In this document: positions 1,843 through 56,853 of the stretch, piece by piece
Position numbering within the stretch: the first letter of the stretch is position 1
Layout: each line of letters opens with the position of its first letter
Assembly: GCA_023142995.1 (NCBI GenBank)
Contig: JAGLIM010000036.1
Coordinates: 1-56,853, forward strand
Direction of reading: 5' to 3'
DNA: 56,853 bases
Origin: Minisyncoccota bacterium
GTDB lineage: Bacteria; Patescibacteriota; Minisyncoccia; JAHIHE01; JAGLIN01
Made by a program: the position numbers and the translations under genes
The notes under the pieces: generated by a model
Seen by the model: the letters and a program-made list of their open reading frames with translations, nothing else
The model's database searches: none
What the model was told of the DNA's origin: nothing

Positions 1843-2769
1843 CTATTTTTCAATTAAGCCAGACCCATAAATTGATATACTTTTAGTATCATTTCTATTG
1901 TTTTTTACTGTTATAATAATTTCTTCATTTAGATCAGAAGTCCCATCAAAAAATACCTTACCATATGGGGGTTTAAACACAATATTAATAGTATTTGGTG
2001 TACCTGCAGAAGAAACTACAGAGATCTCTGAAAGATCAGATCTTTGTGGAAGTTCGATCTCTTGATACATTTCAATGGGAGCATCGTAAATACCATCACT
2101 GTCTAAATCGGCGAATACTATATATTCATCTGAATTACCTTTATCAAAATATATTCCATAACCACCATCAGGAAACGTTCCGTTATGCTTTAATAACCTA
2201 AACGAATAATCTTGAACCATTTTAGCATCATTGATTATTTGACTTTCAGCTAAATGTAAAGCCTTTTTATCAATAGATTCAAAATAACTTGGCACATTTA
2301 CAGCCACCATCACACTAACAATAGCCATCACCACAATTAGTTCAAGCAATGTAAAGCCACTATTAGAATTTTGAATTTTGAATTTTGAATTTTGAATATC
2401 TTTTGATTTTTTTATTAGACCGTTTAGAAGCTTATGAACTATAACTGACTTATCAGCAATATTATCAAAATCTTGCTCATTGATATAATTTATATCTCTT
2501 GCAACTAATAACTGACTTTGAACTTCTGTTAGAGAACCTCTGGCTATAGAATAAAATTGAATTTTCTCTTTATAGGTTTGCCTTGAAAAACCTTCTGCAA
2601 TATTAGATGTTATGGAAATTGCAGCTCTTCTAATTTGGCTTGTTAACCCAAATATTTCTTCTTTTGGAAAGTTTTTAGTGATTTTATAAATCATTAATAC
2701 TAATTGATGCGCTTCTTTCCAAGCGTTTAAATCTGTAAATGATTCTATTCTCTTTGAATTGTCATTCAT
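1843..2769 (-). CDS. in-frame fusion: four-helix-bundle (23S rRNA intervening-sequence type, TIGR02436-like) protein + GspH/FimT-like minor prepilin
   Basis: Residues 1 to about 125 (FTDLNAWKEAHQLVLMIYKITKNFPKEEIFGLTSQIRRAAISITSNIAEGFSRQ...GSLTEVQSQLL) match the four-helix-bundle family consensus. A KFKIQNS linker encoded by (GAATTTT)n follows. Next comes SG|FTLLELIVVMAIVSVMVAV (G-1, F+1, E+5) and a pilin-like globular part. No in-frame ATG/GTG/TTG lies near the pilin signal. Confidence 0.75.
   Translation of the reverse strand: MNDNSKRIESFTDLNAWKEAHQLVLMIYKITKNFPKEEIFGLTSQIRRAAISITSNIAEGFSRQTYKEKIQFYSIARGSLTEVQSQLLVARDINYINEQDFDNIADKSVIVHKLLNGLIKKSKDIQNSKFKIQNSNSGFTLLELIVVMAIVSVMVAVNVPSYFESIDKKALHLAESQIINDAKMVQDYSFRLLKHNGTFPDGGYGIYFDKGNSDEYIVFADLDSDGIYDAPIEMYQEIELPQRSDLSEISVVSSAGTPNTINIVFKPPYGKVFFDGTSDLNEEIIITVKNNRNDTKSISIYGSGLIEK
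2366..2397 (-). repeat. (GAATTTT)4.5 heptamer tandem repeat, 3' arm of the cassette bracketing the four-helix-bundle ORF
   Basis: Direct reading. Encodes the KFKIQNSKFKIQNS linker. Imperfectly complementary (17/20) to 2770-2789 just upstream of the ORF start. Confidence 0.85.
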
Positions 2770-2797
2770 AATTCTAAATTCAATATTCCAAATAATT

Positions 2798-4003
2798 TTA
2801 AATCATTGTTGTCATTTGGTAGATTGGCATTAGGATTGATGCTACTAGGGCTGCTACTGCGCCACCAAGAACAAATATCATTATAGGTTCTATTATTGCA
2901 GTTAAACCGTCTATAGCAATATCAACTTCTTTTGTATAAAAGTCTGCAATATCTTTTAATACAACATCCAACTTTCCTGTTTTCTCGCCAACTCTTATCA
3001 TTTTTGGAACCAAATTTGGCAATACATCACTTCTTTCAAAAGTATAAGCAATTGAACCACCGATCTTTACTTCATCTATACTGCTATAAATTAATTTTTT
3101 ATATACATTATTACCAACAACATCACCAGATATTTGTAAAGCGCTTATGATCGGAATACCACTAGATATTAACATTGAAAGATTTTCTGCAAATCTTGCT
3201 ACATAGAACTTTTTAATGATCGTATTGAACTGAGGTATTTTTAATATCAAAGCATCTACTTTGTTTTTACCACTGGTAGTCTGAACATATTTTTTAAACA
3301 AATAAGCTCCTACAATGACCGCTATAAAGATCAAAATTATATGATTTTTTATAATATCACTTGTAAGAATTAATATTTTGGTAGGAAGTGGTAATTCCTG
3401 ATCAGTTCCTTCAAATACACTTACAAGCTGAGGTACTACAAATGCCATCATTCCAACACCAACTAAAGCAAACCCTCCTAATATTACTGCAGGATACATT
3501 AAAGCACTTTTTACTTTGCTTGAGAGTAAATATTGTTTTTCAATATAATCTGACAGATGAAGAAGAGATTCTTGCATTCTTCCAGAGGCTTCTCCTGATT
3601 TAACAATACTTATAAAAAAGTTAGAGAACACATTTGGAAATTTTGACAAAGCAGTAGAAAACGGAACACCATCTTCTACCATATTTGATATTTTGAAAAT
3701 ATGTTCTTTAAAAAACAAATTTTCTTCCTGTTCATATTGCATTCGGAGTGATTCAACCAAAGGAACTCCTGCCATTAAAAGGATTGAAAGTTCCTTCGCA
3801 AATATTGTGATCTTCTTGTGATTAACTCTATTAATCGCATTTAAATATTTCTTGAATGAAAAAAATTCTTTTGTCTCAGTGATTGACATAACAACAAGTT
3901 TGTGTTTTTGCAATAATTCAATAGCTCTTTCTTTGCTTCCAGCCTCAATCTTTCCAATTTGCTCTGTTCCACTAACAGATATTGCCCTATATTTAAATTT
4001 CAT
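2798..4003 (-). CDS. pilC: type IV pilus platform protein PilC (GspF/T2SS F family)
   Basis: 401 aa with two T2SS-F repeats, each carrying the GE.(S/T)G.(M/L) signature (GEASGRMQESL and GEKTGKLDVVL), plus the expected three TM segments. Confidence 0.9.
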   Translation of the reverse strand: MKFKYRAISVSGTEQIGKIEAGSKERAIELLQKHKLVVMSITETKEFFSFKKYLNAINRVNHKKITIFAKELSILLMAGVPLVESLRMQYEQEENLFFKEHIFKISNMVEDGVPFSTALSKFPNVFSNFFISIVKSGEASGRMQESLLHLSDYIEKQYLLSSKVKSALMYPAVILGGFALVGVGMMAFVVPQLVSVFEGTDQELPLPTKILILTSDIIKNHIILIFIAVIVGAYLFKKYVQTTSGKNKVDALILKIPQFNTIIKKFYVARFAENLSMLISSGIPIISALQISGDVVGNNVYKKLIYSSIDEVKIGGSIAYTFERSDVLPNLVPKMIRVGEKTGKLDVVLKDIADFYTKEVDIAIDGLTAIIEPIMIFVLGGAVAALVASILMPIYQMTTMI

Positions 4004-4008
4004 ATTTT

Positions 4009-7000
4009 TTAATTAGAAGACGAAACTTCATTCCATTTTGGATATTTTCTACCTTCAAATGGTATATTTTTTCTTTTCGGACATGATTGTCCTGAAATAT
4101 CTTGCCTATACAAAATTACTGTATAGAAATCTTTTTTTGATTCAATATAAATATTTATTGGATCTTCTTCTATGCTATCTATCGTCGCATTATCATAGAA
4201 ATCCCACTGTCTAATGATAGTCTCAATGCACTTGCCATTATCATCACACTGGAAGCCACCGTCACAATCTGTATCATCTTCACAAGGAGAACAAACTGTA
4301 GAATTGCATTTGAAAAGATCTAATGTCTTACAAGGCGTTCCGACAGAACACTCAAAAGTCCCAGATGGTAAGCAAACTCCAGTGACACAAGTATAATCAC
4401 CGAATTTAGTACATTGTGAAGAATCAGTACAAGCGTCACAATCATTATCACTATTGCACATTGCCTTATCCGAATAAAGACACTGACTATCGTTTAAACA
4501 CTCAACAACATTTGAAATATCTTCAAAATGAATTTCCTCTCCAAAAGAACATCGACTAGTTACATCTTCGCCCTCATCATAAGCACACTGATCAGAATCA
4601 TCATTCACTGCAACAAAATCTACATCAGGATATTCATGAGGCGGAGTCGTAAACAAAGGACCATGACCATTCGGCGATCCCCAATCCGAAACTTTTTCAA
4701 GACCTCCAGACTTATCATCCGTAACTCGAACTCTCCAATAATATGTTTTACCACCATATTCTAAATCAACGCTTTTAATTTCATAGAAAGAAGTAGCATC
4801 TGGGTCTGTGATCCAATTATCAGCAACCACGATCTCGGTTGCTTCGTTAGATATTATTTCTCTGATCCCATTATCAGTTCCAGTGCCGCCTACTATTTCT
4901 ATAGTTCCACCTTGCCATTCATTTTTGATCCAAGTTGCATCATCATCAAATAACTTTTTAACGCCCGAAGATTTAACTGTATCTGATCTCATATTTCCAC
5001 CAGATTGAACAAAATGATATTCGCTATTTCCACCTTTATAATTCAATATTAATGGTCCGATACTAAAATCATCATTAGCTTCTTTTACTTGTATCTCATA
5101 ATATTTTTGACTATCTGTCAAATCATCATCAGTAAACTCCCATTCTAATTTATAATTGAAACTTCCACCACAAAGTTGAGGTTCAACAACTATAAGATTC
5201 TCTACAGTTGGAACTCTGTTTGTATCTATTATAGATATGCTGTACTCATTCGTACATCTATAATTATGATTAACTGAATTATCAGTTGCACAAGATCTAT
5301 ATTTAAATGTTTTATTCGCACTCAGGAATGTAGTATTTATTAAATCTTTTTTCACTTTGATAACATAGCTAGAAGTAGCATCGGGAATAGGAGCATGACT
5401 CCAATTAGAATCTGCTGTTATTGTCTGCTCTGTGTTTGATGATATTGTTTTTAATTCAGTAGTGGCATCTGCATAAGTAATTTCAATAGTTCCTCCAGCC
5501 CATTCACCTATGATCCAATCTTTATCATTAACAGTAATAGTATCTGCTCCTGCAGAAAACACTTGACCATTATTTTCATTTTCACAATCTCCTCCAGAAA
5601 TACAAACATTACAAATCCCTCCGCTACACGCGTTATTCTCTGTAGTAGTCCAATCATCCACAGTCCATTCAATAGATGACTGAAGAATATTACTATCATC
5701 AAAACTATCAGTTGATATTGTAAACTTATTTTCAACAGTGCTAATATCTGAATCATTTATATTTCCAGAAATATTAGTAAGTTTATTTCCTTCAGTTATA
5801 ACTACAGTTGGTATTGTGGTATAACCAGACCCACCATCACTAATATTTATGGCAGAAATCACACCGTCAGTATCAATTACAGAAGTAGCGCTTGCACCAG
5901 TTCCATCGCCAATTATTGTTATAGTAGGCGCCGTAACATAATTTAACCCTCCTGTAAAAGTGATATTACTCACACTTCCACCTAACAATTCTGCAATCGC
6001 AGTTGCTTGAGTTATGTCAATTCTCAACGATTGCGCATCAACAGTAACGCTATTGACTATTCCATCACATTTATTTGCTGCATTATCAAAAGCGCCATTA
6101 CAATCATTATCAATACCATCATTACAAACTTGCCAATGAAGAGGAACATTTCCTGTTAGACCGCTTGAACTAGTGCTATGATATTTCTTCCAGCTAGGTC
6201 CATTGGGACTGCTTAATGCTCCATCATTCCCATTTATAGAACTATCTGTAACAGTTCCACCAGAACCTTTATCAAGGTTCCAATGTCCAATCAAATTTGT
6301 ATTATCAAAAAATATACCATCATACTGATCTGCTATTTCTTGACCAGACAAAACACGATCATAAATTCTTACATCATCCATCAGACCATTATAATATCTA
6401 TTATCACCAATAACTCTTCTGCCAAGAAGAACGGGATTTGAAGATGAGTTAATATTTCCATTCTTTAACTCACTTTTAGATAAAGTACCATCAACATAAA
6501 TTTTTACTTCATAACCATTATAAGTTCCAACTAGATGATGCCATTGATTTTGTGTTAACGGATTATCAGCAACTGCTTGAGTAAAAGAATCAGTATATAC
6601 TCTCATTCTAGGTTTTTCATCGTTTTTAATTCCAAGCATATAACTCTCTTCGTTCATTAATGGTCCTTTTGTGATTATTCCTACATCACTATTTTGATCA
6701 CCTATATAAACCCACGCCACGCACGAAATATTATTTCCCGTAATATCTAAACTTGAGCTATTAGGAATTTCCACATAGTCATCTACTCCATCAAATTCAA
6801 GTGATGAATATGTTTTTTCTTCAATGTCATAACCTCCACAATCACAGTTACAAACTGTATCATTACCATCAAAATCACTGGCAATAGAACAATCTATATC
6901 TGTTGCAGCAGCAATAATCCCGCAAACTCCAAGATCACATCCTTTATTAGTTAGATATTTTCCATCTGTTCCTCCACAAGAATCGAAACCTATTCCTGCT

Positions 7001-10000
7001 AGATCGGGAACACAAAATCCAGCAGTACATTCATTTCCACCACGACAACCAGTATAAAAAGGAGAACAAGATGGTCCACCACCACAAGTTACACCGTCTG
7101 CTTTCAGATTTGGCGTCCAAACTGTTCCAGTACATGTATCAGTATAGCATTCAGAATTAAACAAGTTTGGATTGCTAATTGCAGCATTACAAACTCCACC
7201 ACAACATTCTCCAGTAACTGAAGCATTTTCTCCACATCCAGTTAAAGGATCTTGATCTGCCGCAGTATCCGTGTTCACAATATGATAAGTAACAGGATCA
7301 TCAATAACTATATTTGAACAATCACTATCTAAAACGACAAAATTATAAGTATCAGTTGTTTCAGTATTAGTGTTAATATCAGTTCCTATCGCATAAAAGC
7401 TAAAGGTTTGACCTATGTCAGAATACGCTAATGTTTTTTCTGCTTGACACGTACACGTAAATGCTCCAGCACAATTACATGTTTTAAAAATTGATCCATC
7501 TAAATATACTACAATATTATCAACACCGCTTGTATCACTAGCTGAGGTTCTAATTAAAACATTTTTAGTTTCATAAACACTTCCTGGATCAATTGTGATA
7601 TTAGCATCACCTGCTATAAATGAATCGCTAACATCATATGCCAAATCATCAGACGAATATGAATTAATCCAATCAAAACTAGTAAAAACACTATCACAGA
7701 TAGAACTTGTATTAGTAGATACAAGATTGCAAGTACCAGTCCTTCCACCAACACATGAATAATTTGCTAATCTCAATGGTTCACTATTATATCCACAATA
7801 ATCATTACTTTTGGCTTTATCAGTATCCTTTGCTTTACAGTAACCATTATAACATCTAAGATTTCTGATCTCACATCCTCCTTCTGGCGGATTAAAATAA
7901 GTATATGATTCACCAAATAAATCTGGCGGATTAGCATACGACTCTTGATAGGAATAACAACCACTATCATAATCAGTTCCACCTGAATTAAAAACGCAAG
8001 ATGGATTACCAACAAGTGTTGGATCAGGTTCTAATTCTAACCTTATTCCATTACAAGTTTTTCTTGTACACTCATCTTCATCGTAAGGACCTTCGGGACC
8101 ACTGTTATATGCAGATGTATTGCACACATTTCCACAACATTGACCGCCTGTACAAACAGAAAGATCAGCGCCTGTACATTCAGAACTTTTAATCAAAAAT
8201 GATTTAGTTGCTGAAGTTGAAGAAATATCATTTCCGGAATTATCAGTGACCACAGTTCTAAATTCAATTATCGTTCCAGGTGAATATGAAGAAATATCAA
8301 TTGGACTTGATGTCACACTGTCCATAGTCTGACCATCACCATCACATTTTCCAGAAGGCGAGGCAATATCAATACAATTATACTTTGCTATCCATCCTCC
8401 ACTATTTATATTGAATTGAACTTCATATTCTTTTATTCCATTTGAATCATTTGCCTCTGTAATTATCGTCACAGAACCAGTGAGTTCAGTAACATCAGTT
8501 CCTTCTGGAGGACTCGCTCTTTGGATTTTCGTAATAGTTGGACCTGTTCCATCACACGCAAGTGTTTCTCCTCCATCTATTAAATTATCACAATCATTAT
8601 CGATTCCATCTGAACAAGTAGGATTCCCATCACTATTATTAAAGCCAATTCCTTCTGATGGTTCATTGATCGGTAAACCAAGCGTCTGAAATACCGGACC
8701 ACTATGAAAATCACCTCCAGTTTTAACGTAATAATAAACATCTAAAGTATTATTAAGATAAGTTCCATTATATGAACAATCAATATTTAAAGGATAATTA
8801 CAGCTATAAATTGTTCCATTCAACGAACATGAAGTCATCTCTGAAGCGTTATCTTGTTCACTAACAACTCTTTCTAATGCTCCATTATCAATTCTAATAT
8901 AAAAATTATCTAAATTCGCTAAATTGGGATAATTATTAATATTAATCTTAAATTCTTGATCCACATTCCTCAACAATGCAGGTATTGTTGCAAAAACAGT
9001 AGCAACTGTAACATCTTTTACTGTTACTCCATCTATTACTTCGCTTTGGTTACTATTTGAATCAACTGCATGCGAAGAATAATCTATCTTTGTACCAGCA
9101 TTGAACAATCCTAACGATCCACTGCTACAACTTACAGATGTTCCGACAATACTACAATTGTTAATAACATTTATAGGTGCTCCAGGTGGTGTTGCTATCC
9201 ATTCAATATAATGATCACTAAAACCGAAGTTATCTGTTGCGTTTGAAACCAGTGTTAATTCATCTACATTATACAAAGTACCAGACGGAGTTCTATAGAT
9301 ACCAACAGTTGGAGATATTTCATCACAAACTGCAGAAGTTATTTTATTAACAATATTTTCTAAACTAGCATCTAAACTGCCTTCTACATAATTACAATTT
9401 TCAATTGTACTTTTCATTGTTAATCCAGGTTCATCGTCTGGACTGGCAAGAGTATAATAGCAATCGTTTGGCAAGACATATTGATTATTTATAAAACTTA
9501 TGGCGCTACCTCTTTCCCCATCATCAACAATTTCATCAAAATTAACTCCTATAGTGATCGTTCTTACCGGAGACGCAGATTCTTTCGCAATTTTCACTTC
9601 TTCAATTGCCGAAGTAATATCTATTGGACCACCGCTAACAATTAAAACTATCGTTTTTGTTGCTAAGTAGTTATCACTATTTAAAAGAAATGTCCGAGAA
9701 AGACTTATAGCATCAGTTATATTTCTTGATCCAGACAATTCAACCATAGATCCAATTACAGTTTGAATATCTTCTTTTATCTTCGTTAAAGACCAACTTG
9801 AAACATTTGAATTAAAAGTTGCTAGTCCTACTTGATGATAATCCAAGTTTTCTGCTGCTCCAAAAGCAGGAACAGTAGAAAATAACCCCGAAGGAGTCGT
9901 CCCGTCTTTGTATATAAAATCTATACTTGAATTTTTTACATCACTTAATTTAGTACCAGACATATTTGCTGAATTGTCTATTGCTAAAATAACATCAGCT

Positions 10001-10140
10001 GGTCCTTTACAAGAAGTCGTGGCAGAAGAAACTTTATTTTTATAAACACCAACAGCTGCAAACACAAAAACAATAAGTAACATAAAAAATGCTTTTCTCT
10101 TGAATTGTATTTCTTTTTTTTGTTTTTTTATATTTTTCAT
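4009..10140 (-). CDS. giant (2043 aa) membrane-anchored/secreted vWA + LamG + Cys-rich repeat protein, candidate pilus-associated adhesin (PilY1 analogue)
   Basis: N-terminal anchor FFMLLIVFVFAAVGV. vWA MIDAS-type start ILAIDNSANMSG (about 9540-10000). Metal-binding-like CxDGxDNDC motifs (CSDGIDNDCDNLIDGGE, CNDGIDNDCNGAFD). Laminin-G_3/concanavalin-like block LEFDGVDDYVEIP...WHHLVGTYNG...LMDDVRIYDRVLSGQEI (about 6330-6810). Many Cys-rich stretches and internal duplications (W.(G/N)EW.GGTIEI...). Lies between pilC and the pilO/pilN-like genes. Confidence 0.75.
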   Translation of the reverse strand: MKNIKKQKKEIQFKRKAFFMLLIVFVFAAVGVYKNKVSSATTSCKGPADVILAIDNSANMSGTKLSDVKNSSIDFIYKDGTTPSGLFSTVPAFGAAENLDYHQVGLATFNSNVSSWSLTKIKEDIQTVIGSMVELSGSRNITDAISLSRTFLLNSDNYLATKTIVLIVSGGPIDITSAIEEVKIAKESASPVRTITIGVNFDEIVDDGERGSAISFINNQYVLPNDCYYTLASPDDEPGLTMKSTIENCNYVEGSLDASLENIVNKITSAVCDEISPTVGIYRTPSGTLYNVDELTLVSNATDNFGFSDHYIEWIATPPGAPINVINNCSIVGTSVSCSSGSLGLFNAGTKIDYSSHAVDSNSNQSEVIDGVTVKDVTVATVFATIPALLRNVDQEFKININNYPNLANLDNFYIRIDNGALERVVSEQDNASEMTSCSLNGTIYSCNYPLNIDCSYNGTYLNNTLDVYYYVKTGGDFHSGPVFQTLGLPINEPSEGIGFNNSDGNPTCSDGIDNDCDNLIDGGETLACDGTGPTITKIQRASPPEGTDVTELTGSVTIITEANDSNGIKEYEVQFNINSGGWIAKYNCIDIASPSGKCDGDGQTMDSVTSSPIDISSYSPGTIIEFRTVVTDNSGNDISSTSATKSFLIKSSECTGADLSVCTGGQCCGNVCNTSAYNSGPEGPYDEDECTRKTCNGIRLELEPDPTLVGNPSCVFNSGGTDYDSGCYSYQESYANPPDLFGESYTYFNPPEGGCEIRNLRCYNGYCKAKDTDKAKSNDYCGYNSEPLRLANYSCVGGRTGTCNLVSTNTSSICDSVFTSFDWINSYSSDDLAYDVSDSFIAGDANITIDPGSVYETKNVLIRTSASDTSGVDNIVVYLDGSIFKTCNCAGAFTCTCQAEKTLAYSDIGQTFSFYAIGTDINTNTETTDTYNFVVLDSDCSNIVIDDPVTYHIVNTDTAADQDPLTGCGENASVTGECCGGVCNAAISNPNLFNSECYTDTCTGTVWTPNLKADGVTCGGGPSCSPFYTGCRGGNECTAGFCVPDLAGIGFDSCGGTDGKYLTNKGCDLGVCGIIAAATDIDCSIASDFDGNDTVCNCDCGGYDIEEKTYSSLEFDGVDDYVEIPNSSSLDITGNNISCVAWVYIGDQNSDVGIITKGPLMNEESYMLGIKNDEKPRMRVYTDSFTQAVADNPLTQNQWHHLVGTYNGYEVKIYVDGTLSKSELKNGNINSSSNPVLLGRRVIGDNRYYNGLMDDVRIYDRVLSGQEIADQYDGIFFDNTNLIGHWNLDKGSGGTVTDSSINGNDGALSSPNGPSWKKYHSTSSSGLTGNVPLHWQVCNDGIDNDCNGAFDNAANKCDGIVNSVTVDAQSLRIDITQATAIAELLGGSVSNITFTGGLNYVTAPTITIIGDGTGASATSVIDTDGVISAINISDGGSGYTTIPTVVITEGNKLTNISGNINDSDISTVENKFTISTDSFDDSNILQSSIEWTVDDWTTTENNACSGGICNVCISGGDCENENNGQVFSAGADTITVNDKDWIIGEWAGGTIEITYADATTELKTISSNTEQTITADSNWSHAPIPDATSSYVIKVKKDLINTTFLSANKTFKYRSCATDNSVNHNYRCTNEYSISIIDTNRVPTVENLIVVEPQLCGGSFNYKLEWEFTDDDLTDSQKYYEIQVKEANDDFSIGPLILNYKGGNSEYHFVQSGGNMRSDTVKSSGVKKLFDDDATWIKNEWQGGTIEIVGGTGTDNGIREIISNEATEIVVADNWITDPDATSFYEIKSVDLEYGGKTYYWRVRVTDDKSGGLEKVSDWGSPNGHGPLFTTPPHEYPDVDFVAVNDDSDQCAYDEGEDVTSRCSFGEEIHFEDISNVVECLNDSQCLYSDKAMCNSDNDCDACTDSSQCTKFGDYTCVTGVCLPSGTFECSVGTPCKTLDLFKCNSTVCSPCEDDTDCDGGFQCDDNGKCIETIIRQWDFYDNATIDSIEEDPINIYIESKKDFYTVILYRQDISGQSCPKRKNIPFEGRKYPKWNEVSSSN

Positions 10141-26301: not shown

Positions 26302-29300
26302 TTAATTATCTAACAATTCCAGTTTCCCTTTCAGTTTTTCTAGCTTTATTGTACTTTCTTGATGTTTTTCCCTTTCTTTTTCAACAATTTCTCGCGGAGC
26401 ACTAGCGACAAAGTTATCATTACCAAGTTTTTTTCTTATCTGTGTAATATATTTTTCTATATTCTCAATTTCTTTTTTAGTTTTTTCTATCTCTTTTTCT
26501 GTATCAATCAAATCCCCGATATTTACATAAACTGAAACCTTATGATCAAAATGAATCCACCCTTCTATCTTTTTTACTCCAACTTCAAATTCTAAACTTT
26601 TAACTCCTGCTAATTTTTCAATAATATTTTTATTTTTTTCTATTACATCAAAATCTGCTTTCGTTAGATCCTTTCTTGTTTCAGAATTTATTACAACATC
26701 CACTTTTTCTTTTAAGGAAATTTTATTCTCATTCTTTATCCTTCTTATTTCTGAAATTATTCCCTGAAGAAGATCAAAATCAACATTTACTTGAATTAAT
26801 TCTAAACATCTTTTTTTATCCTCTGGCCATTTTTCAACCATTAATAAACTATTTTTATCCATCTCTTCCCATATCCTTTCTGTCACAAAAGGTATGAACG
26901 GATGACATAGCTTTAATAAAGTTTCCAAAACATAAATTAAAACCGCATCATTTTTCTCTTGTACTTTTGAAACCTCTAAATACCAATCAGCAAATTTATT
27001 CCACATAAAATCTCTAATACCATCACCAACTTCAAGCGCAGAAGAAAATTGATAATTTTCTAAAGAATTATTAACTATATAAATAAGATTATCCAATTCT
27101 TCTAAAATCCATTTATCCGCCAAAGTTAAATTATCATAATCAATTTCTGACTTTTGACTTTTGACTTTTGACTTTTGACTTAGAATTATATACCGCGACA
27201 CATTCCAAAGCTTATTCACAAAATTCCGATACCCTTCAATTTTCTCTTCATACATTTTGATGTCATTTCCTGGACTGGACCCGATGATCATACTCAATCG
27301 CAAAGCATCTGTTCCATATTTTTCGATCATTGTGGCAGGATCAATTCCATTTCCAAGAGATTTGCTCATTTTCTTTCCTTGTTTATCACGCACCATTCCA
27401 TGAAGATAAACATTTTCAAATGGCACTTCGTCTAAAGTATAAGTCGTCATCAAGATCATTCTGGCTATCCAAAAAAACAAAATATCATATCCAGTTTCCA
27501 TTACTGAAGTTGGATGAAATTTTTTCAAATCCGGACTACCAGCGACCCACTCCTCAAATGTTTTATACTTCTCGTGATCTTGATCAAGCAAAGTTGAAAA
27601 AGTCCAAATCCCAGAAGAGAACCAGGTGTCAAGAGTATCAAAATCCTGAGTCCACTCCGAGTTTTTTAAAAATACATTTCCACCAATTAAAATTTTATCA
27701 TCTTTATATCTAACATATATTTCATTTTCAAAATTTTCTGTTCCTTGCTTAACAATAAAATCATTATCAAAAAATGCAGCTAATGCACCAGCAGCAACAG
27801 CTGTTGCTTCATCTTCATTAATTCCTAAAAATGGATTAAATTGTCTTACAAAAACTAAGTTTTTATTTTTTTTATCTTCAACAAAAAGACAATATCCAGA
27901 AAAATTCTTTTCCTTATTCCATTTTTTAAGATTTTCAAAATCAGGATTTACTTTTCTTAAAGTTTCAATATCTTTTATCCTTACTATAAGCTTTGGCACG
28001 CCAATAGAAAATATTCCTAAAAGTTCAAACTCTTCTTTTTCAATTCCCAAAAATTCAAATGGCAGTTCTTCAGAAAAATTCGACTTGATTCTTATAGACT
28101 TATCTGTTTGAAAAAATATTTTATTATCTTCTTTTTGAACTACAATATCTCCTGCTAATGTTTTAATTTTAAGATCTGATTTATCAAAACTCGTAGCTCC
28201 AGCAAGCAAAGCATGACCGCAAAGCGGAGTTTCTTCTCCTATTTTTGAAAAAAATCTAAACTCAGCATCATAATTTGAATTTTTAGATTTTAAAACAAAA
28301 ACGCTTTCAGAAGCACCAATCTCTTTTGCAATTTCTGGCATTTCGTTTTCTTTAAATTCTTTATCTACTACGCCTGCTATATTGCCACTGCTTATATTAG
28401 AACCAAAAACATTTGCAATTTTATAATCATTCTCTGGCAACTTACCGCCAATATAAATTTCCTGACTTTCTACTTTATGAACTTTATCAACTTTTAACTT
28501 ATAATACACCGGAATCCGATGTCCAAACCACAACTGCCGTGAAATGCACCAGTCATGAAGATTTTCCATCCAGTTATAATAAGTTTTCTCAAATCTCTCT
28601 GGAATGATCTTGATCTCCCTATTTCTGACAACTTCAAGAGAAACATCTTTAAGGGACTTGTTTTGAAAATATTTATTTCCTTCAATCGTAATTTTTTTAT
28701 CAACGGCAACAAACCATTGCTTTGACGGCAGAGGTTCAATTGGAGTATCGCAACGATAGCAAATGCTCAAAGATTGGTCTACTTCTTCAACTTTTTCAAT
28801 TAAATCATTTTTTTGTAGATATTTTACAAATTTCTTTCGCGCTTTTAAAGCTGTTAGTCCCGCATAATCTTTCCCCGCACCAACATTCATTTTCCCATCT
28901 TCACCGATTACTTTTATTTTTTCTAAATCATTCTTTTCTGCTATTTCCCAATCAATCATACTGTGTGCTGGCGTTACTCCTATTGCTCCTGTTCCAAATT
29001 CCATATCAATCCCCCGATCAGCAATAACTTTGATCTTATGTGTGCCATTTCCCAGATCAATTTCAAAAATCTGTCCAATATATTTCTTATATCTCTTGTC
29101 CTTGGGATTCACCGCAATTGCTGTATCGCCCAATTTTGTCTCTGGTCTTGTCGTGGCAATTGTGATCGGAAAATCTTTATTATATTTAAAATAATAAAAT
29201 TTTCCTTTTTGATCTTTATGTTCAACTTCATCATCCGCAAGAGTTGACTCGCATCTTGGACACCAGTTAACAATTCTGTCTCCGCGATATATTAATCCAT

Positions 29301-29805
29301 CATTATACATCTTCGTGAAAACCTCTCTAACCGCGCGCGATAGACCATCATCAAGAGTATATCTTTCCCGCGACCAATCACAAGAAGATCCCATTTTTCG
29401 TGTTTGGTTTTTAATCGTGTTTTTTGAATTTTCTACATATTCATTAATTCGCTCTAAAAACTTTTCTCTCCCCAGATCATATTTCGTTTTACCTTCTTTC
29501 GCGATTATCTTCTCAACTTTCGTCTGCGTCGCAATTGAAGCATGATCCGTCCCTGGAAGCCATAATGCCTTTTTCCCCTGCATCCGATTATACCTGATCA
29601 TTAAATCCTGATAAGTAAGCATTGAGGCATGCCCCAAATGTAAAAAACCAGTCGCATTCGGCGGTGGCATTGAAATTGAAAACTTTTCAGCATCTTCTGG
29701 CAACTCTAAATTATCTGGATCAAACTTCCCAGATTCTTCCCATTTTTTATATATTTTATCCTCAACTTCTTGTGGATTATATGCTTTTGGAATTTCTTTT
29801 TTCAT
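26302..29805 (-). CDS. valS: valine--tRNA ligase carrying an internal PhzF-like domain insertion
   Basis: HIGH-type FLHLGHA, CP1 editing region, WCISRQLWFGHRIPVYY, DTLDTWFSS, KMSKS and a C-terminal coiled coil. At 1167 aa it exceeds the usual roughly 880 because of an insert of about 256 aa between the WFGHRIP and DTWFSS elements. Confidence 0.95.
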   Translation of the reverse strand: MKKEIPKAYNPQEVEDKIYKKWEESGKFDPDNLELPEDAEKFSISMPPPNATGFLHLGHASMLTYQDLMIRYNRMQGKKALWLPGTDHASIATQTKVEKIIAKEGKTKYDLGREKFLERINEYVENSKNTIKNQTRKMGSSCDWSRERYTLDDGLSRAVREVFTKMYNDGLIYRGDRIVNWCPRCESTLADDEVEHKDQKGKFYYFKYNKDFPITIATTRPETKLGDTAIAVNPKDKRYKKYIGQIFEIDLGNGTHKIKVIADRGIDMEFGTGAIGVTPAHSMIDWEIAEKNDLEKIKVIGEDGKMNVGAGKDYAGLTALKARKKFVKYLQKNDLIEKVEEVDQSLSICYRCDTPIEPLPSKQWFVAVDKKITIEGNKYFQNKSLKDVSLEVVRNREIKIIPERFEKTYYNWMENLHDWCISRQLWFGHRIPVYYKLKVDKVHKVESQEIYIGGKLPENDYKIANVFGSNISSGNIAGVVDKEFKENEMPEIAKEIGASESVFVLKSKNSNYDAEFRFFSKIGEETPLCGHALLAGATSFDKSDLKIKTLAGDIVVQKEDNKIFFQTDKSIRIKSNFSEELPFEFLGIEKEEFELLGIFSIGVPKLIVRIKDIETLRKVNPDFENLKKWNKEKNFSGYCLFVEDKKNKNLVFVRQFNPFLGINEDEATAVAAGALAAFFDNDFIVKQGTENFENEIYVRYKDDKILIGGNVFLKNSEWTQDFDTLDTWFSSGIWTFSTLLDQDHEKYKTFEEWVAGSPDLKKFHPTSVMETGYDILFFWIARMILMTTYTLDEVPFENVYLHGMVRDKQGKKMSKSLGNGIDPATMIEKYGTDALRLSMIIGSSPGNDIKMYEEKIEGYRNFVNKLWNVSRYIILSQKSKVKSQKSEIDYDNLTLADKWILEELDNLIYIVNNSLENYQFSSALEVGDGIRDFMWNKFADWYLEVSKVQEKNDAVLIYVLETLLKLCHPFIPFVTERIWEEMDKNSLLMVEKWPEDKKRCLELIQVNVDFDLLQGIISEIRRIKNENKISLKEKVDVVINSETRKDLTKADFDVIEKNKNIIEKLAGVKSLEFEVGVKKIEGWIHFDHKVSVYVNIGDLIDTEKEIEKTKKEIENIEKYITQIRKKLGNDNFVASAPREIVEKEREKHQESTIKLEKLKGKLELLDN
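27149..27181 (-). repeat. (GACTTTT)4.7 heptamer tandem repeat in frame inside valS
   Basis: Direct reading. Encodes SQKSKVKSQKS in the loop between NKLWNVSRYI and LTLADKWILEEL. Confidence 0.85.
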
Positions 29806-50735: not shown

Positions 50736-50882
50736 AAACCCTTTAAGTATTTTTAATTACAAAATTCAACTATAGAAAACCGTCTAATATTTATGATACT
50801 TTTTACTTTATTCACACTATTAAATTGCTTTGCACTTCACTTTGGTGAAGATTTAACAGGGTAAACTTTCAACTTATTTATG

Positions 50883-50975
50883 TGCTCTCAGTAGGAATCC
50901 GTAAGTCCGCCTTGGGAGGAGAACCTACGTCACGGATTCCGCAAACCCGCGTTCTATCCGTTGAACTATGAGAGC
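50883..50975 (-). tRNA. tRNA-Arg(GCG)-like gene with a 21-nt insertion in the T-loop (possible intron-containing tRNA or pseudogene)
   Basis: Minus-strand read: acceptor GCTCTCA/TGAGAGC (7 bp perfect), U8, D-arm GTTC-AACGGATA-GAAC (G18 G19 A20), anticodon arm CGGGT-TTGCGGA-ATCCG (anticodon GCG), 4-nt variable region, T-stem GTAGG/CCTAC. The T-loop is 28 nt: TTC + 21 nt (50900-50920) + GATT. Discriminator is A and no CCA is encoded. Confidence 0.5.
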
Positions 50976-51038
50976 TTAAAAGATTATTTCGAAACAAAAC
51001 CATTCAATAAAACTAAAAATGACTGATCTTTAGAACAA

Positions 51039-51785
51039 TCATTCATCATCATTATCTTTTCTTTTTTCTGTCATATAATCATATAGCTCGTCATCAGAAA
51101 CATAATCATCTATATCATCTTCTTTTTCAAAATTAAGCAAAGATTCAGTTAGTTCATTTTCATAAAGAAAATTATCCAGTACTGCTCTAATATAAAGCGG
51201 GTCTTGATCAATTAAATAAATAGTTTTAATCGGCAACACAGAGTTTTTTAATTCAAATTTCAAAACACTATATTCTTCATCTTCAATTACCTGAAACAAC
51301 CTGATCTGACGATATCTATATAGCTTATCATCAATGCTAATCCCATCTAAATCAATCTTATACTCAACATCACGTGGCTCTTGATACATATATATTCCAA
51401 GAACAACGAGCATCATCATAAACGTAAGAACTGGGATAAAGCTTCCTTGCAAAACAAAATGTACAACAGCAATTATTGCCAATGCCGCAGAAAGATAATA
51501 GATAACCATATCTCGCAAAGTTTTAATATGCTCTGGCGCTGTCCATTTAGCAAAGTTTTGATCGTCATCTTTTGCTTTCTTTATTGCCTTTTTCACAGTT
51601 TTCTTAATCTTCGCTTCTTGCTCTTTCAAAGCAACAGCTTCTTTTTTCTTAGGAGCTACTCTTTTAGGAGCTGTTTTCTTTTTTGTTAAGTTAGCTTTTT
51701 TAACAGTTTTGCTTTTTAGCTTTTTAGCTTTTGGTTTTAATATTTCTTTTTTATTTATTTTTTTTGTTGCCATATTTTTGAACAA
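51039..51785 (-). CDS. hypothetical membrane protein with lysine-rich (histone H1-like) N-terminal tail
   Basis: The first roughly 75 residues are K/A/P-rich (KPKAKKLKSKTVKKANLTKKKTAPKRVAPKKK). Two TM helices follow, then a small PH-like C-terminal domain and an acidic tail. Confidence 0.5.
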   Translation of the reverse strand: MFKNMATKKINKKEILKPKAKKLKSKTVKKANLTKKKTAPKRVAPKKKEAVALKEQEAKIKKTVKKAIKKAKDDDQNFAKWTAPEHIKTLRDMVIYYLSAALAIIAVVHFVLQGSFIPVLTFMMMLVVLGIYMYQEPRDVEYKIDLDGISIDDKLYRYRQIRLFQVIEDEEYSVLKFELKNSVLPIKTIYLIDQDPLYIRAVLDNFLYENELTESLLNFEKEDDIDDYVSDDELYDYMTEKRKDNDDE

Positions 51786-51890
51786 TTAAATTAAGCTTCG
51801 CATATTTTTCTGCTTTTACTTTTTTATTTTATCATTTCAAAGACAAATAGTAAAGAAAAAAGATAAAAAATACAACAATCAAAAATAAAC

Positions 51891-51932
51891 TAATAACCTC
51901 TTTTCTGACGACCGTCAGGAAAGAGGTTATTA
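51891..51932. repeat. same hairpin family, copy 2 (about 40 nt after the capA stop)
   Basis: TAATAACCTCTTTTCTGACGACCGTCAGGAAAGAGGTTATTA. Confidence 0.85.
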
Positions 51933-51971
51933 GCAAAATTTAGTGAAATACGGACAAAATCTGAAACAATA

Positions 51972-52997
51972 TTAAAACTTCAATCTTTCTAAGATCATTT
52001 CTGCTTCTGTGCCCTCTAGGATGGTTGGTTGAGAATAATCATAGATCTTAACTGGGATGAATTCAATGCTTTTGATCTTCTTGTTTTGAAATGTGATCTC
52101 CGCAATCGCGCCTAGTCTTGTTTCGTTTGACCACATTTGATCAAAAACAAAATTACCAAGACTATAAATGATATATCCTTGTTTATATTTTTGAACATTT
52201 TGAACAACATGCGGATGATGACCAATGATCAAATCTGCTCCTGCATCAATTGCTTTTTGCGCAAAGTTTTCTTGAAACGAACTTGAAGAAGTTTTATATT
52301 CAGTTCCAGCATGCATAGAGACTATTACAATATCATTTTTAGATTTTGTTTTTTTGACATTCTCTTCCATCTTAGTAATAGACATATTCGCCATACCATA
52401 GATATCCCCATCAGAAGATCTGCGTTGATCAAAATTATATGTAAATCCAAGAAAAGCAAATTTTGTTCCCTTGATATCTTTGATCACAGGCTTATAAATT
52501 TCTTCTTCACTCATTCCTGCTCCAATGTGCGAAATATTATTCTCATCTAAAGTCTTAATCGTACTTTCAAGACCATCTCTCCCAAAGTTCATAATGTGAT
52601 TATTTGCCAATGATAAAACATTAAATCCTGCAAAAACAAGACCTTCAACTGCTCTTAAGTCTGTTCGAAACACCATTTCGTTATTCCGTATCGCTCTTCC
52701 ATTTATTATTGAAGTTTCAAGATTTCCAAAAATAATATCTCCAGTCTTTGTTTTCTCCGCTGTTTTTAAAAAAGGATACTTAAAATCCCCATTATTAATC
52801 ATTTTTCTTTCTACTTCCCGAGAAAGCATAATATCGCCAACTGCAATCATCCTTACTTCATCTGAAACATCATTTTGCGTATATTCTTCATTATTAGAAT
52901 TATTCAAAATTGATGGAAAACCAGCACTTGATACTAGAAAAAGACTCATAACAATGAATCCAATAATATTAATTTTAATTTTTACTAACTTATTCAT
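51972..52997 (-). CDS. capA: CapA-family (PGA_cap) metallophosphatase-like protein
   Basis: GDIMLSR, GNLE, ANNH, HAGTEY and GHHPH motifs of the CapA/PGA_cap family, with an N-terminal anchor. Confidence 0.8.
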   Translation of the reverse strand: MNKLVKIKINIIGFIVMSLFLVSSAGFPSILNNSNNEEYTQNDVSDEVRMIAVGDIMLSREVERKMINNGDFKYPFLKTAEKTKTGDIIFGNLETSIINGRAIRNNEMVFRTDLRAVEGLVFAGFNVLSLANNHIMNFGRDGLESTIKTLDENNISHIGAGMSEEEIYKPVIKDIKGTKFAFLGFTYNFDQRRSSDGDIYGMANMSITKMEENVKKTKSKNDIVIVSMHAGTEYKTSSSSFQENFAQKAIDAGADLIIGHHPHVVQNVQKYKQGYIIYSLGNFVFDQMWSNETRLGAIAEITFQNKKIKSIEFIPVKIYDYSQPTILEGTEAEMILERLKF

Positions 52998-53103
52998 AAA
53001 AGAAGCTGTTTTTATTAGACATATCTCAGATATATTTTATCACATAACTCAAGCTCTTGCCAAATCTAAAGCAAAATGCTATTTTGTTTAGGTAACCGAA
53101 TTT

Positions 53104-53131
53104 AGTATCAAGTATATAGTATTAAGTATTA
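53104..53131. repeat. (AGTATNA)4 heptamer array
   Basis: AGTATCA AGTATAT AGTATTA AGTATTA. Same unit as the array at 13468-13509. Confidence 0.7.
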
Positions 53132-53143
53132 AACGTTATTGTT

Positions 53144-53211
53144 ATTCTGAACTAATCCCACGACAAGCTCAGAGCCTGTCCTGAATTTAGTTCAGGAATG
53201 ACATTATTCAG
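53144..53211. repeat. hairpin module, near-identical inverted copy of 45294-45353
   Basis: ATTCTGAACTAATCCCACGACAAGCTCAGAGCCTGTCCTGAATTTAGTTCAGGAATGAC matches the reverse complement of 45294-45353 at about 95% identity. Confidence 0.85.
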
Positions 53212-53259
53212 ACAAAAAATTGAGAAAAATTTAAATTTTATAAATTATCTTATTTATCT

Positions 53260-53349
53260 GGAGAGTTGACAGAGCGGTCGAATGTACCGGTCTTGAAAAC
53301 CGGAGGGCCCTCACGGGTCCCGGGGGTTCGAATCCTCCACTCTCCGCCA
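53260..53349 (+). tRNA. tRNA-Ser (anticodon UGA)
   Basis: GGAGAGT acceptor pairing with ACTCTCC; D-arm with GAGCGGTCGAA; anticodon loop CTTGAAA (UGA); long variable arm GGGCCCTCACGGGTCCC; T-arm GGGGGTTCGAATCCTCC; discriminator G; encoded CCA. Confidence 0.92.
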
Positions 53350-56830: not shown

Positions 56831-56853
56831 TAATCTTTTTTATGATGTAATAA

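Follow-up and report, generated by a model that had tools for sequence, protein, structure and literature searches.

A 21-nt insertion splits the T-loop of a tRNA-Arg(GCG) gene in a Patescibacteria bacterium

The interrupted gene, its detection and its host

We analyzed an interrupted tRNA-Arg(GCG) gene on the minus strand of a 56,853-nucleotide (nt) stretch of contig JAGLIM010000036.1, the whole of which we call the window. By direct reading and by script, the minus strand from 50975 to 50883 runs GCTCTCA-TA-GTTC-AACGGATA-GAAC-G-CGGGT-TTGCGGA-ATCCG-TGAC-GTAGG-TTC, continues with the insertion TCCTCCCAAGGCGGACTTACG, and ends with GATT-CCTAC-TGAGAGC-A. All 21 stem pairs are intact (acceptor 7/7, D 4/4, anticodon 5/5 with one G-U, T 5/5), U8, G18, G19, A20 and U33 are present, and the anticodon is GCG. 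The arginine features A20 and C35 are in place, and G36 and G37 were also read in the sequence. The acceptor stem, U8, D-arm, anticodon loop and T-stem were all reproduced as an earlier first-pass annotation, made from the sequence alone, had described them, and so was the lack of an encoded CCA, unlike the tRNA-Ser(UGA) of the window.

Standard tools did not recognize the gene in its native state. ARAGORN found no tRNA at the locus, and its intron and relaxed-score options produced only spurious low-score calls; once 50900-50920 was deleted it called tRNA-Arg(gcg), in keeping with the earlier claim that this deletion restores a canonical tRNA. The sole ARAGORN tRNA of the window was the tRNA-Ser(UGA) at 53260-53349, which encodes its CCA. 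The Rfam tRNA model aligned positions 8-63 of the native locus with 23.2 bits, under the gathering score of 29, and permissive Rfam thresholds around the locus gave just this partial match and chance snoRNA hits. A scan for promoters and terminators at the locus stayed at chance level. We also applied a structural filter (G53-TTC, a 4-80 nt insert, R57-A58, a T stem whose strands are complementary, and an acceptor stem of 7 bp) to both strands of ~1 Mb of fetched DNA. It returned seven candidates, each called tRNA-Arg(gcg) by ARAGORN after insert removal, while 332 tRNAs in the same DNA were normal. As all seven were the window locus or its copies, a chance arrangement is ruled out. Genes of this kind are silently dropped by tRNA finders from the inventories of metagenome-assembled genomes (MAGs).

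The host is an uncultured bacterium of the Patescibacteria, or candidate phyla radiation (CPR). Its window has 31% G+C and encodes an NAD-dependent DNA ligase, RecG, GatA, a PilB-type ATPase, ValRS and a ZnuABC transporter, and named relatives of the window ZnuA come from Andersenbacteria, Pacebacteria, Parcubacteria and the 'Patescibacteria group'. The exact ZnuA and PGA_cap proteins of the window were found on contigs of several samples and in the NCBI MAG GCA_030632705.1. The identical 93 nt occur on at least six contigs, each from a different sample (L001-L005 and L137, a 112.9-kb contig; L numbers denote fetched loci), and the insert-bearing allele was the sole one recovered for the lineage across these samples. 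Such identity, which extends to the NCBI MAG, excludes an assembly artefact. We found nothing that favored an assembly or sequencing error, a second allele with one insert substitution occurs in a different genomic background, and we regard the chance of an artefact as negligible.

Empty sites, a second allele and a strain mosaic

Relatives were gathered through a ZnuA search that gave a graded series, and their contigs were then fetched. Six contigs whose ZnuA is ~90% identical (L127/L143, L131, L133, L134 and L135) carry an intact 72-nt tRNA-Arg(GCG) gene between the same neighbors, with the T-loop TTCGATT, and the L127 and L131 orthologues score 64.3 bits in Rfam. These syntenic empty sites, reading GGTTC/GATTCC, fix the insert at exactly 21 nt between C56 and G57, the length and boundaries first proposed for it. 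The first-pass annotation had also called for a search for the same insertion in relatives; L126 (ZnuA 95% identical) has it with one change, TCCTCCC to TTCTCCC, and has T in place of C at position 47 of the variable loop. A structure-breaking lesion in a gene whose orthologues in close relatives are intact is a feature of pseudogenes.

The exons differ little between strains. The 5′ part (positions 1-56) differs from the sister orthologues just at position 3, a change common to L134, and at position 47, while the 3′ part differs at positions 64 and 70. Pair 3:70 is U-A in the insert-bearing alleles, C-G in the sisters and an intermediate U-G in L134, and the insert-bearing alleles have U50-A64 where the sisters have U50-G64; A64 and A70 are specific to the insert allele and both lie 3′ of the insert. 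Judging from these alignments, the insert was gained once and recently, and is carried by the window type and L126 only.

We compared the window and L126 in detail. Over the 93 nt they differ at two positions, position 47 and the insert substitution, which amounts to 1/72 in the exons, and a check for pseudogene decay showed none in the exons between the two insert alleles. Synonymous divergence (dS) is 0.475 in the gene just upstream and 0.238 in ZnuA, the 65-nt spacer is full of changes, and the DNA downstream of the tRNA is non-homologous; such neutral rates would predict 15-25 exon changes and 4-7 insert changes. The two strains are ~85% identical from the tRNA through window 50976-51739 and then, across a sharp recombination boundary, 100% identical for ~1.5 kb (window 51740-53253, which covers the PGA_cap gene and runs into the one after it), one 98-nt indel excepted. 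By this comparison the region is visibly a strain mosaic.

The DNA just 3′ of the tRNA (window 50736-50882, 147 nt, up to znuA) differs completely between strains. L126 and L127 have an extra 157-aa open reading frame (ORF) without a Pfam match between the tRNA and znuA (~2460-3000), and L131-L135 have (AAGTTAAAAG)n tandem repeats and a long inverted repeat there (L131 ~1665-1855). The 157-aa ORF that follows znuA in the window is represented by 39-55-aa remnants in the sister strains.

Predicted folding and partial tRNA copies elsewhere

In the predicted minimum free energy fold (-38.0 kcal/mol, z = -3.6), C48-C56 pairs with insert nt 13-21 in a 9-bp helix, on top of which a 3-bp stem with a CCCA loop forms inside the insert. 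The enforced cloverleaf reached -31.3 kcal/mol, 6.7 kcal/mol worse, with a T-stem ensemble probability of ~0, and the L126 allele folds likewise. With the T-stem 5′ strand sequestered in the 9-bp helix, the transcript is predicted to lack a T arm. Among 2000 composition-matched shuffles of the insert, the T stem stayed intact in 40% and just 0.4% reached at least nine such pairs, indicating that the complementarity of the insert to the T-stem 5′ strand is non-random. Such complementarity is expected if the T-stem 3′ strand recurs in the insert as a degenerate copy (CTTAC vs CCTAC), and would also be expected of a selected RNA structure. We considered the competing hairpin as a minihelix mimic for RNase P or RNase Z and dropped the idea, as cutting at the predicted sites would leave the exons unjoined.

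A pattern scan of species-representative genomes recovered at least 120 loci with tRNA-Arg(GCG) (L006-L125), holding at least 121 such genes from Patescibacteria, Chloroflexota, Spirochaetes, Armatimonadota and others. Lengths were assignable for 119 of the genes and were all 71-74 nt. The GCG anticodon had been taken in the first-pass annotation as characteristically archaeal; with at least 121 ordinary bacterial genes listed, that flavor falls away. An insert in tRNA-Arg(GCG) is rare, as the other listed genes, at least 121, are normal. A JGI metagenome pattern with the same T stem and an 8-38 nt insert gave no true case, its single match (L136) being a false positive in which a normal tRNA-Arg is followed by a partial 3′ copy. 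That copy has a 29-nt insert between T stem and acceptor strand.

Among the matches listed, the CGN-box arginine tRNAs beside the at least 120 loci are UCG and CCG, never ACG. At least 165 tRNA-Ser genes (GCU, UGA, CGA and GGA) adjoin the tRNA-Arg(GCG) genes in Patescibacteria, Chloroflexota and Spirochaetes, and the window retains this linkage, with Ser-UGA ~2.3 kb off and Ser-GCU ~11.6 kb off. The latter, a normal gene, was the one further tRNA met on a walk outward from the window, and the reachable DNA of the host genome came to ~67 kb (window plus L144). Small GIY-YIG nuclease ORFs (~90-125 aa) lie in or beside tRNA-Arg(GCG)/tRNA-Ser clusters of unrelated phyla (L081, L087, L054, L116 and L014), abutting the tRNA-Ser gene in L054 and L116. 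L087 also holds a partial 3′ copy of tRNA-Ser (~3960-4170, minus-strand reading).

We searched the fetched loci for 3′-end repeats of each resident tRNA. Eight partial tRNA-Arg(GCG) copies lie 0.1-1.6 kb downstream of an intact gene, in L010, L014 (two), L048, L080 (two, in tandem), L099 and L114. The identity blocks of six of them, from five genomes of several phyla (L048, L080, L099, L014 and L114), start at tRNA positions 54, 56, 56, 57, 57 and 58, and those of the remaining two start at 32 and 37 in the anticodon loop. Copies of this sort are the classical trace of an element recombining with a tRNA gene at its T-loop or anticodon loop, and they suggest that small integrative elements are frequent at tRNA T-loops in CPR and other phyla. 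The 3′ exon of the window gene starts at 57, inside the 54-58 range of the T-loop boundaries. GCG(G)A recurs in many of the element-side flanks, 3-9 nt ahead of the boundary, and the window insert has it too (GGCGGA-CTTACG/G; flanks in Table 1).

Two of the genomes, L014 and L114, both Chloroflexota, have an intact tRNA-Arg(GCG) followed by partial copies, one of which per genome has a 24-nt insert at 56/57 in the layout GTGGGTTC[...]GAGTCCCGCC. The inserts are homologous (GGCTGGACAGCCGCCCGTCTGGGC in L014 and GGGCGGACGCCCGCCCGTCCGGGC in L114), and two compensatory pairs in the first hairpin separate the two versions. The L014 copies flank a GIY-YIG nuclease ORF and have the anticodon arm replaced by a perfect hairpin, TCCGCC-TTA-GGCGGA; a hairpin region inside these copies matches, on its opposite strand, 19 of the 21 nt of the window's TCTCCTCCCAAGGCGGACTTA. 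Scans of viral contigs for the window insert and for the Chloroflexota 24-nt insert gave no match, and when the joined insert and 3′ exon were compared by blastn with collections of phages and plasmids, chance matches alone came back (E>=0.4). A resemblance of the insert to the variable arm of tRNA-Ser(GCU) (AGGC...TTACGG) was too weak to use.

Table 1 Coordinates of the interrupted gene and its parts, with partial tRNA copies and their boundary flanks. A slash marks the boundary.
Feature	Coordinates	Strand	Details
Interrupted tRNA-Arg(GCG) gene	window 50883..50975	minus	93 nt = 72-nt tRNA + 21-nt insert; discriminator A; CCA not encoded
5′ tRNA part, positions 1-56	window 50921..50975	minus	acceptor 5′ strand, D arm, anticodon arm (loop TTGCGGA), variable TGAC, GTAGG, T54 T55 C56
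21-nt insertion between C56 and G57	window 50900..50920	minus	TCCTCCCAAGGCGGACTTACG; without counterpart in syntenic orthologues
3′ tRNA part, positions 57-73	window 50883..50899	minus	GATT, T-stem 3′ strand CCTAC, acceptor 3′ strand TGAGAGC, discriminator A
Predicted competing hairpin	window 50900..50929	minus	C48-C56 (50929-50921) with insert nt 13-21 (50908-50900), 9 bp
Window flank at the same boundary			GGCGGACTTACG/GATT
Partial-copy flanks, L080			AGCGGATAACATAA/TTCG and AGCGGATGATAAAG/GAAT
Partial-copy flank, L048			GGCGACGTGA/AAGT
Partial-copy flank, L099			AGCGAAGG/CAAA
Partial copies, L014	200-900	minus	
Partial copies, L114	~6100-6190		

Recombination scar, working gene or intron

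Because partial copies elsewhere begin at 54-58, insert and 3′ exon together resemble a mobile-element junction joined into the gene. We infer, at what we judge to be even chances, that the locus is a young recombination scar which has left the gene disabled or crippled, CGU/CGC being decoded by some other tRNA. The starting point would be the lineage's ordinary syntenic tRNA-Arg(GCG) gene, which would have acquired a single recent 21-nt DNA insertion exactly at C56/G57. Insert and 3′ exon would then correspond to an attR-like junction, in which an element arm precedes tRNA 57-73, joined to C56 of the resident gene through aberrant excision or deletion of an element integrated in the T-loop. 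On this view the 3′ half would be element-derived, which fits A64 and A70, both specific to the insert allele. The transcript would fail to form the T arm. We know of no bacterial pathway that excises such an insert, and together with the predicted misfolding this makes the gene most likely crippled or dead; it would also be young. CGU/CGC would be taken over by tRNA-Arg(UCG) through four-way wobble, as in some Mollicutes, or by a second, undetected copy.

Known systems resemble parts of this scheme. The attB of mycobacteriophage Ms6 lies in the T-loop of tRNA-Ala (PMC1762012), and T-loop attachment-site duplications such as that of Ms6 share with the window locus a T-loop break, a start at 57 within the 54-58 range, a GCG(G)A flank and variable 3′ DNA. 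Known integration, however, regenerates an intact tRNA and leaves a harmless partial copy downstream, whereas here the junction lies inside the only visible copy and no element, integrase or displaced fragment is left. Mobile-element footprints at tRNA genes are known; what would be novel is a footprint that interrupts the gene itself. As for decoding, Mollicutes lost the CGU/CGC (CGY) decoder and their tRNA-Arg(UCG) reads all four CGN codons (PMC3711424). The host shares with them a small AT-rich genome, rare CGY codons and a GCG/UCG-type decoding set, and such a loss would begin with the inactivation of tRNA-Arg(GCG), but both the tRNA-Arg(UCG) and the inactivity of the gene are presumed here.

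Several observations count against a scar that silenced the gene. We found no displaced tRNA 3′ fragment or second insert copy in the window, L126, L143 or L131-135, and no integrase among the Pfam-scanned neighbors of the locus, so the donor element is hypothetical. CGU and CGC make up 52 of the 16,293 codons in the window (3.2 per 1000) and are used in ligA, valS and recG; each of the 13 CGY codons found in L143, a strain with intact tRNA, is retained in the window, which has 19 and shows no depletion, a comparison that is uninformative if the insert is young. Given that the insert-bearing allele is the sole one recovered, that CGY codons are kept and that no ACG-type neighbor is listed, the interrupted gene may be the only dedicated CGY decoder. 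The 91/93 identity amid diverged flanks looks like purifying selection on the interrupted gene, unless the tRNA segment is younger than its surroundings. Since the region is a mosaic, that segment may be young, in which case neither conservation nor codon counts would be informative.

Of the two alternatives offered by the first-pass annotation, removal or tolerance of the insert and a pseudogene or integration scar, both are still live, and the scar has gained comparative support. It is less probable than the scar, but still a substantial possibility, that this is a working bacterial tRNA with a short non-ribozyme intervening sequence in its T-loop, either excised by an undescribed route, with or without religation, or tolerated. 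Excision taken separately is tentative: the 21 nt would be cut from the precursor to leave a working CGU/CGC decoder, the halves being religated (e.g., by an RtcB-type ligase) or, in the manner of rRNA intervening sequences, left as a nicked tRNA that its acceptor and T stems keep together; the cleavage sites would be displayed by the 9-bp exon-insert helix. Consistent with it are the intact exons, the island of 91/93 identity between flanks that are ~85% identical or non-homologous, a sole insert substitution that keeps its pair (C-G to U-G), the non-random complementarity to the 5′ exon (0.4% of shuffles), the single allele in at least six samples, the use and retention of CGY codons, and the absence of an ACG decoder from the GCG-type loci listed. 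Precedents exist outside bacterial tRNA. CPR rRNA genes are rich in insertion sequences, many of them short and uncharacterized, that are removed from transcripts (PMC11270868); they come from the same bacterial group, belong to no intron family and in some cases are probably excised without ligation, but they lie in rRNA, and that survey is silent on tRNA. In archaea, 56/57 is a known site of 12-25 nt introns, and nucleomorph tRNAs have T-arm inserts of 3-24 nt that are excised by an unknown route (PMC4090602). We found no literature report of short insertions outside the anticodon loop of bacterial tRNAs. Besides the lack of a known enzyme system, excision has to contend with a missing motif of the bulge-helix-bulge (BHB) type, a length too short for a ribozyme, the confinement of the insert to one shallow clade, two normal tRNA-Ser genes in the reachable genome, and conservation that is weakened by recombination (a 1.5-kb block of 100% identity beside 85% blocks). 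An RNase III-type intervening sequence was rejected: classical ones form a stem from their own two ends, whereas the 3′ part of the window insert pairs with the exon and not with its own 5′ end. That the insert is instead kept in the T-loop of the mature tRNA, with the CPR translation machinery coping, is improbable. The population-level evidence is the same as for excision, and the insert forms its own small hairpin under the enforced cloverleaf, but that cloverleaf trails the competing fold by 6.7 kcal/mol in stability, its T stem has a probability of ~0, and all other tRNAs examined, in at least 120 listed loci, have 7-nt T-loops. C56/R57 lies within the tRNA elbow, which contacts G18/G19, RNase P, EF-Tu and the ribosome, and no natural precedent is known for a T-loop expansion there. 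By analogy, an insert that leaves the gene working may be favored for destroying the T-loop attachment site of elements that integrate in tRNA-Arg(GCG), as tRNA introns in Sulfolobus have been proposed to protect against element integration (PMC4090602).

Intron origins are more distant prospects still. A group I remnant, either dead or spliced in trans, would retain the P1 loop, the internal guide sequence and the terminal G after loss of the core, and we give it only a slim chance. The 5′ exon end GUAGGUUC does pair with GGACUUAC in the insert in a P1-like manner, and a G closes the insert. CPR RNA genes often hold group I introns (PMC11270868), of which one class sits in the tmRNA T-loop (10.1101/2020.01.27.920355). 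Group I introns described in bacterial tRNAs proper lie in the anticodon loop, the T-loop case being found only in tmRNA (10.1101/2020.01.27.920355); compared with these, the window gene shares the interrupted tRNA-type gene, the T-loop site, the P1-like helix and the terminal G, but its insert has 21 nt instead of >200 nt, no catalytic core and no Rfam match, and it lies outside the anticodon loop. No Intron_gpI match was found in the window at the gathering threshold or E<=10, and the base before the splice site is a C paired with G, not the usual U-G. No full-length intron was found at the site in the at least 121 listed relatives, a deletion that left just P1 and the last G appears contrived, and the degenerate T-stem copy explains the complementarity equally well. 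Less probable again is an archaeal-type BHB intron or the transfer of the tRNA gene from archaea. The suggestion that short introns outside the anticodon loop are an archaeal trait stands in part: position 56/57 and the 21-nt length (archaeal medians 12-25 nt) fit non-canonical archaeal introns, and the exons give a canonical tRNA in both cases (PMC4090602). Archaeal introns at this site are removed by EndA from a BHB, defined as a 4-bp helix flanked by two 3-nt bulges (PMC4090602), whereas here no register gives such a helix. Over eight registers and topologies tested at the splice sites fixed by the empty sites, the best formed 2/4 pairs of the central helix. The gene is orthologous to the intact bacterial genes of sister strains, the insert is confined to one shallow clade, and its neighbors (NAD-dependent ligase, RecG, GatA and the PilB-type ATPase) are bacterial.

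Read as a scar, the locus would be a dated snapshot of tRNA loss at its onset in a reduced-genome bacterium, and it would show mobile elements coming and going at tRNA-Arg(GCG). A working interrupted gene would be categorically new for bacteria, the first case in which a bacterial tRNA has a short insertion beyond the anticodon loop that is tolerated or is processed by the host or a protein, and it would bring tRNA into the range of the unexplained insertion sequences of CPR rRNA. Non-ribozyme tRNA splicing in bacteria would in that case be testable on a 93-nt substrate, with natural insert-free controls in the sister strains of the same samples.

The remaining observations concern the wider window. 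GC skew is strongly negative across 1-56853 (cumulative ~-5, 28 bins) and nearly all long ORFs are on the minus strand, which places the window inside a single replichore with co-oriented genes. ValRS (26302-29805, minus, 1167 aa) contains a PhzC/PhzF-like domain (PF02567, residues 465-685) that splits the two halves of its catalytic domain. Just past window position 56853, L144 encodes a 1681-aa alpha-2-macroglobulin-like protein (4956-10001) with internal PT-HINT and Hom_end_hint Pfam matches, which suggests from the domain matches that the protein carries an intein.

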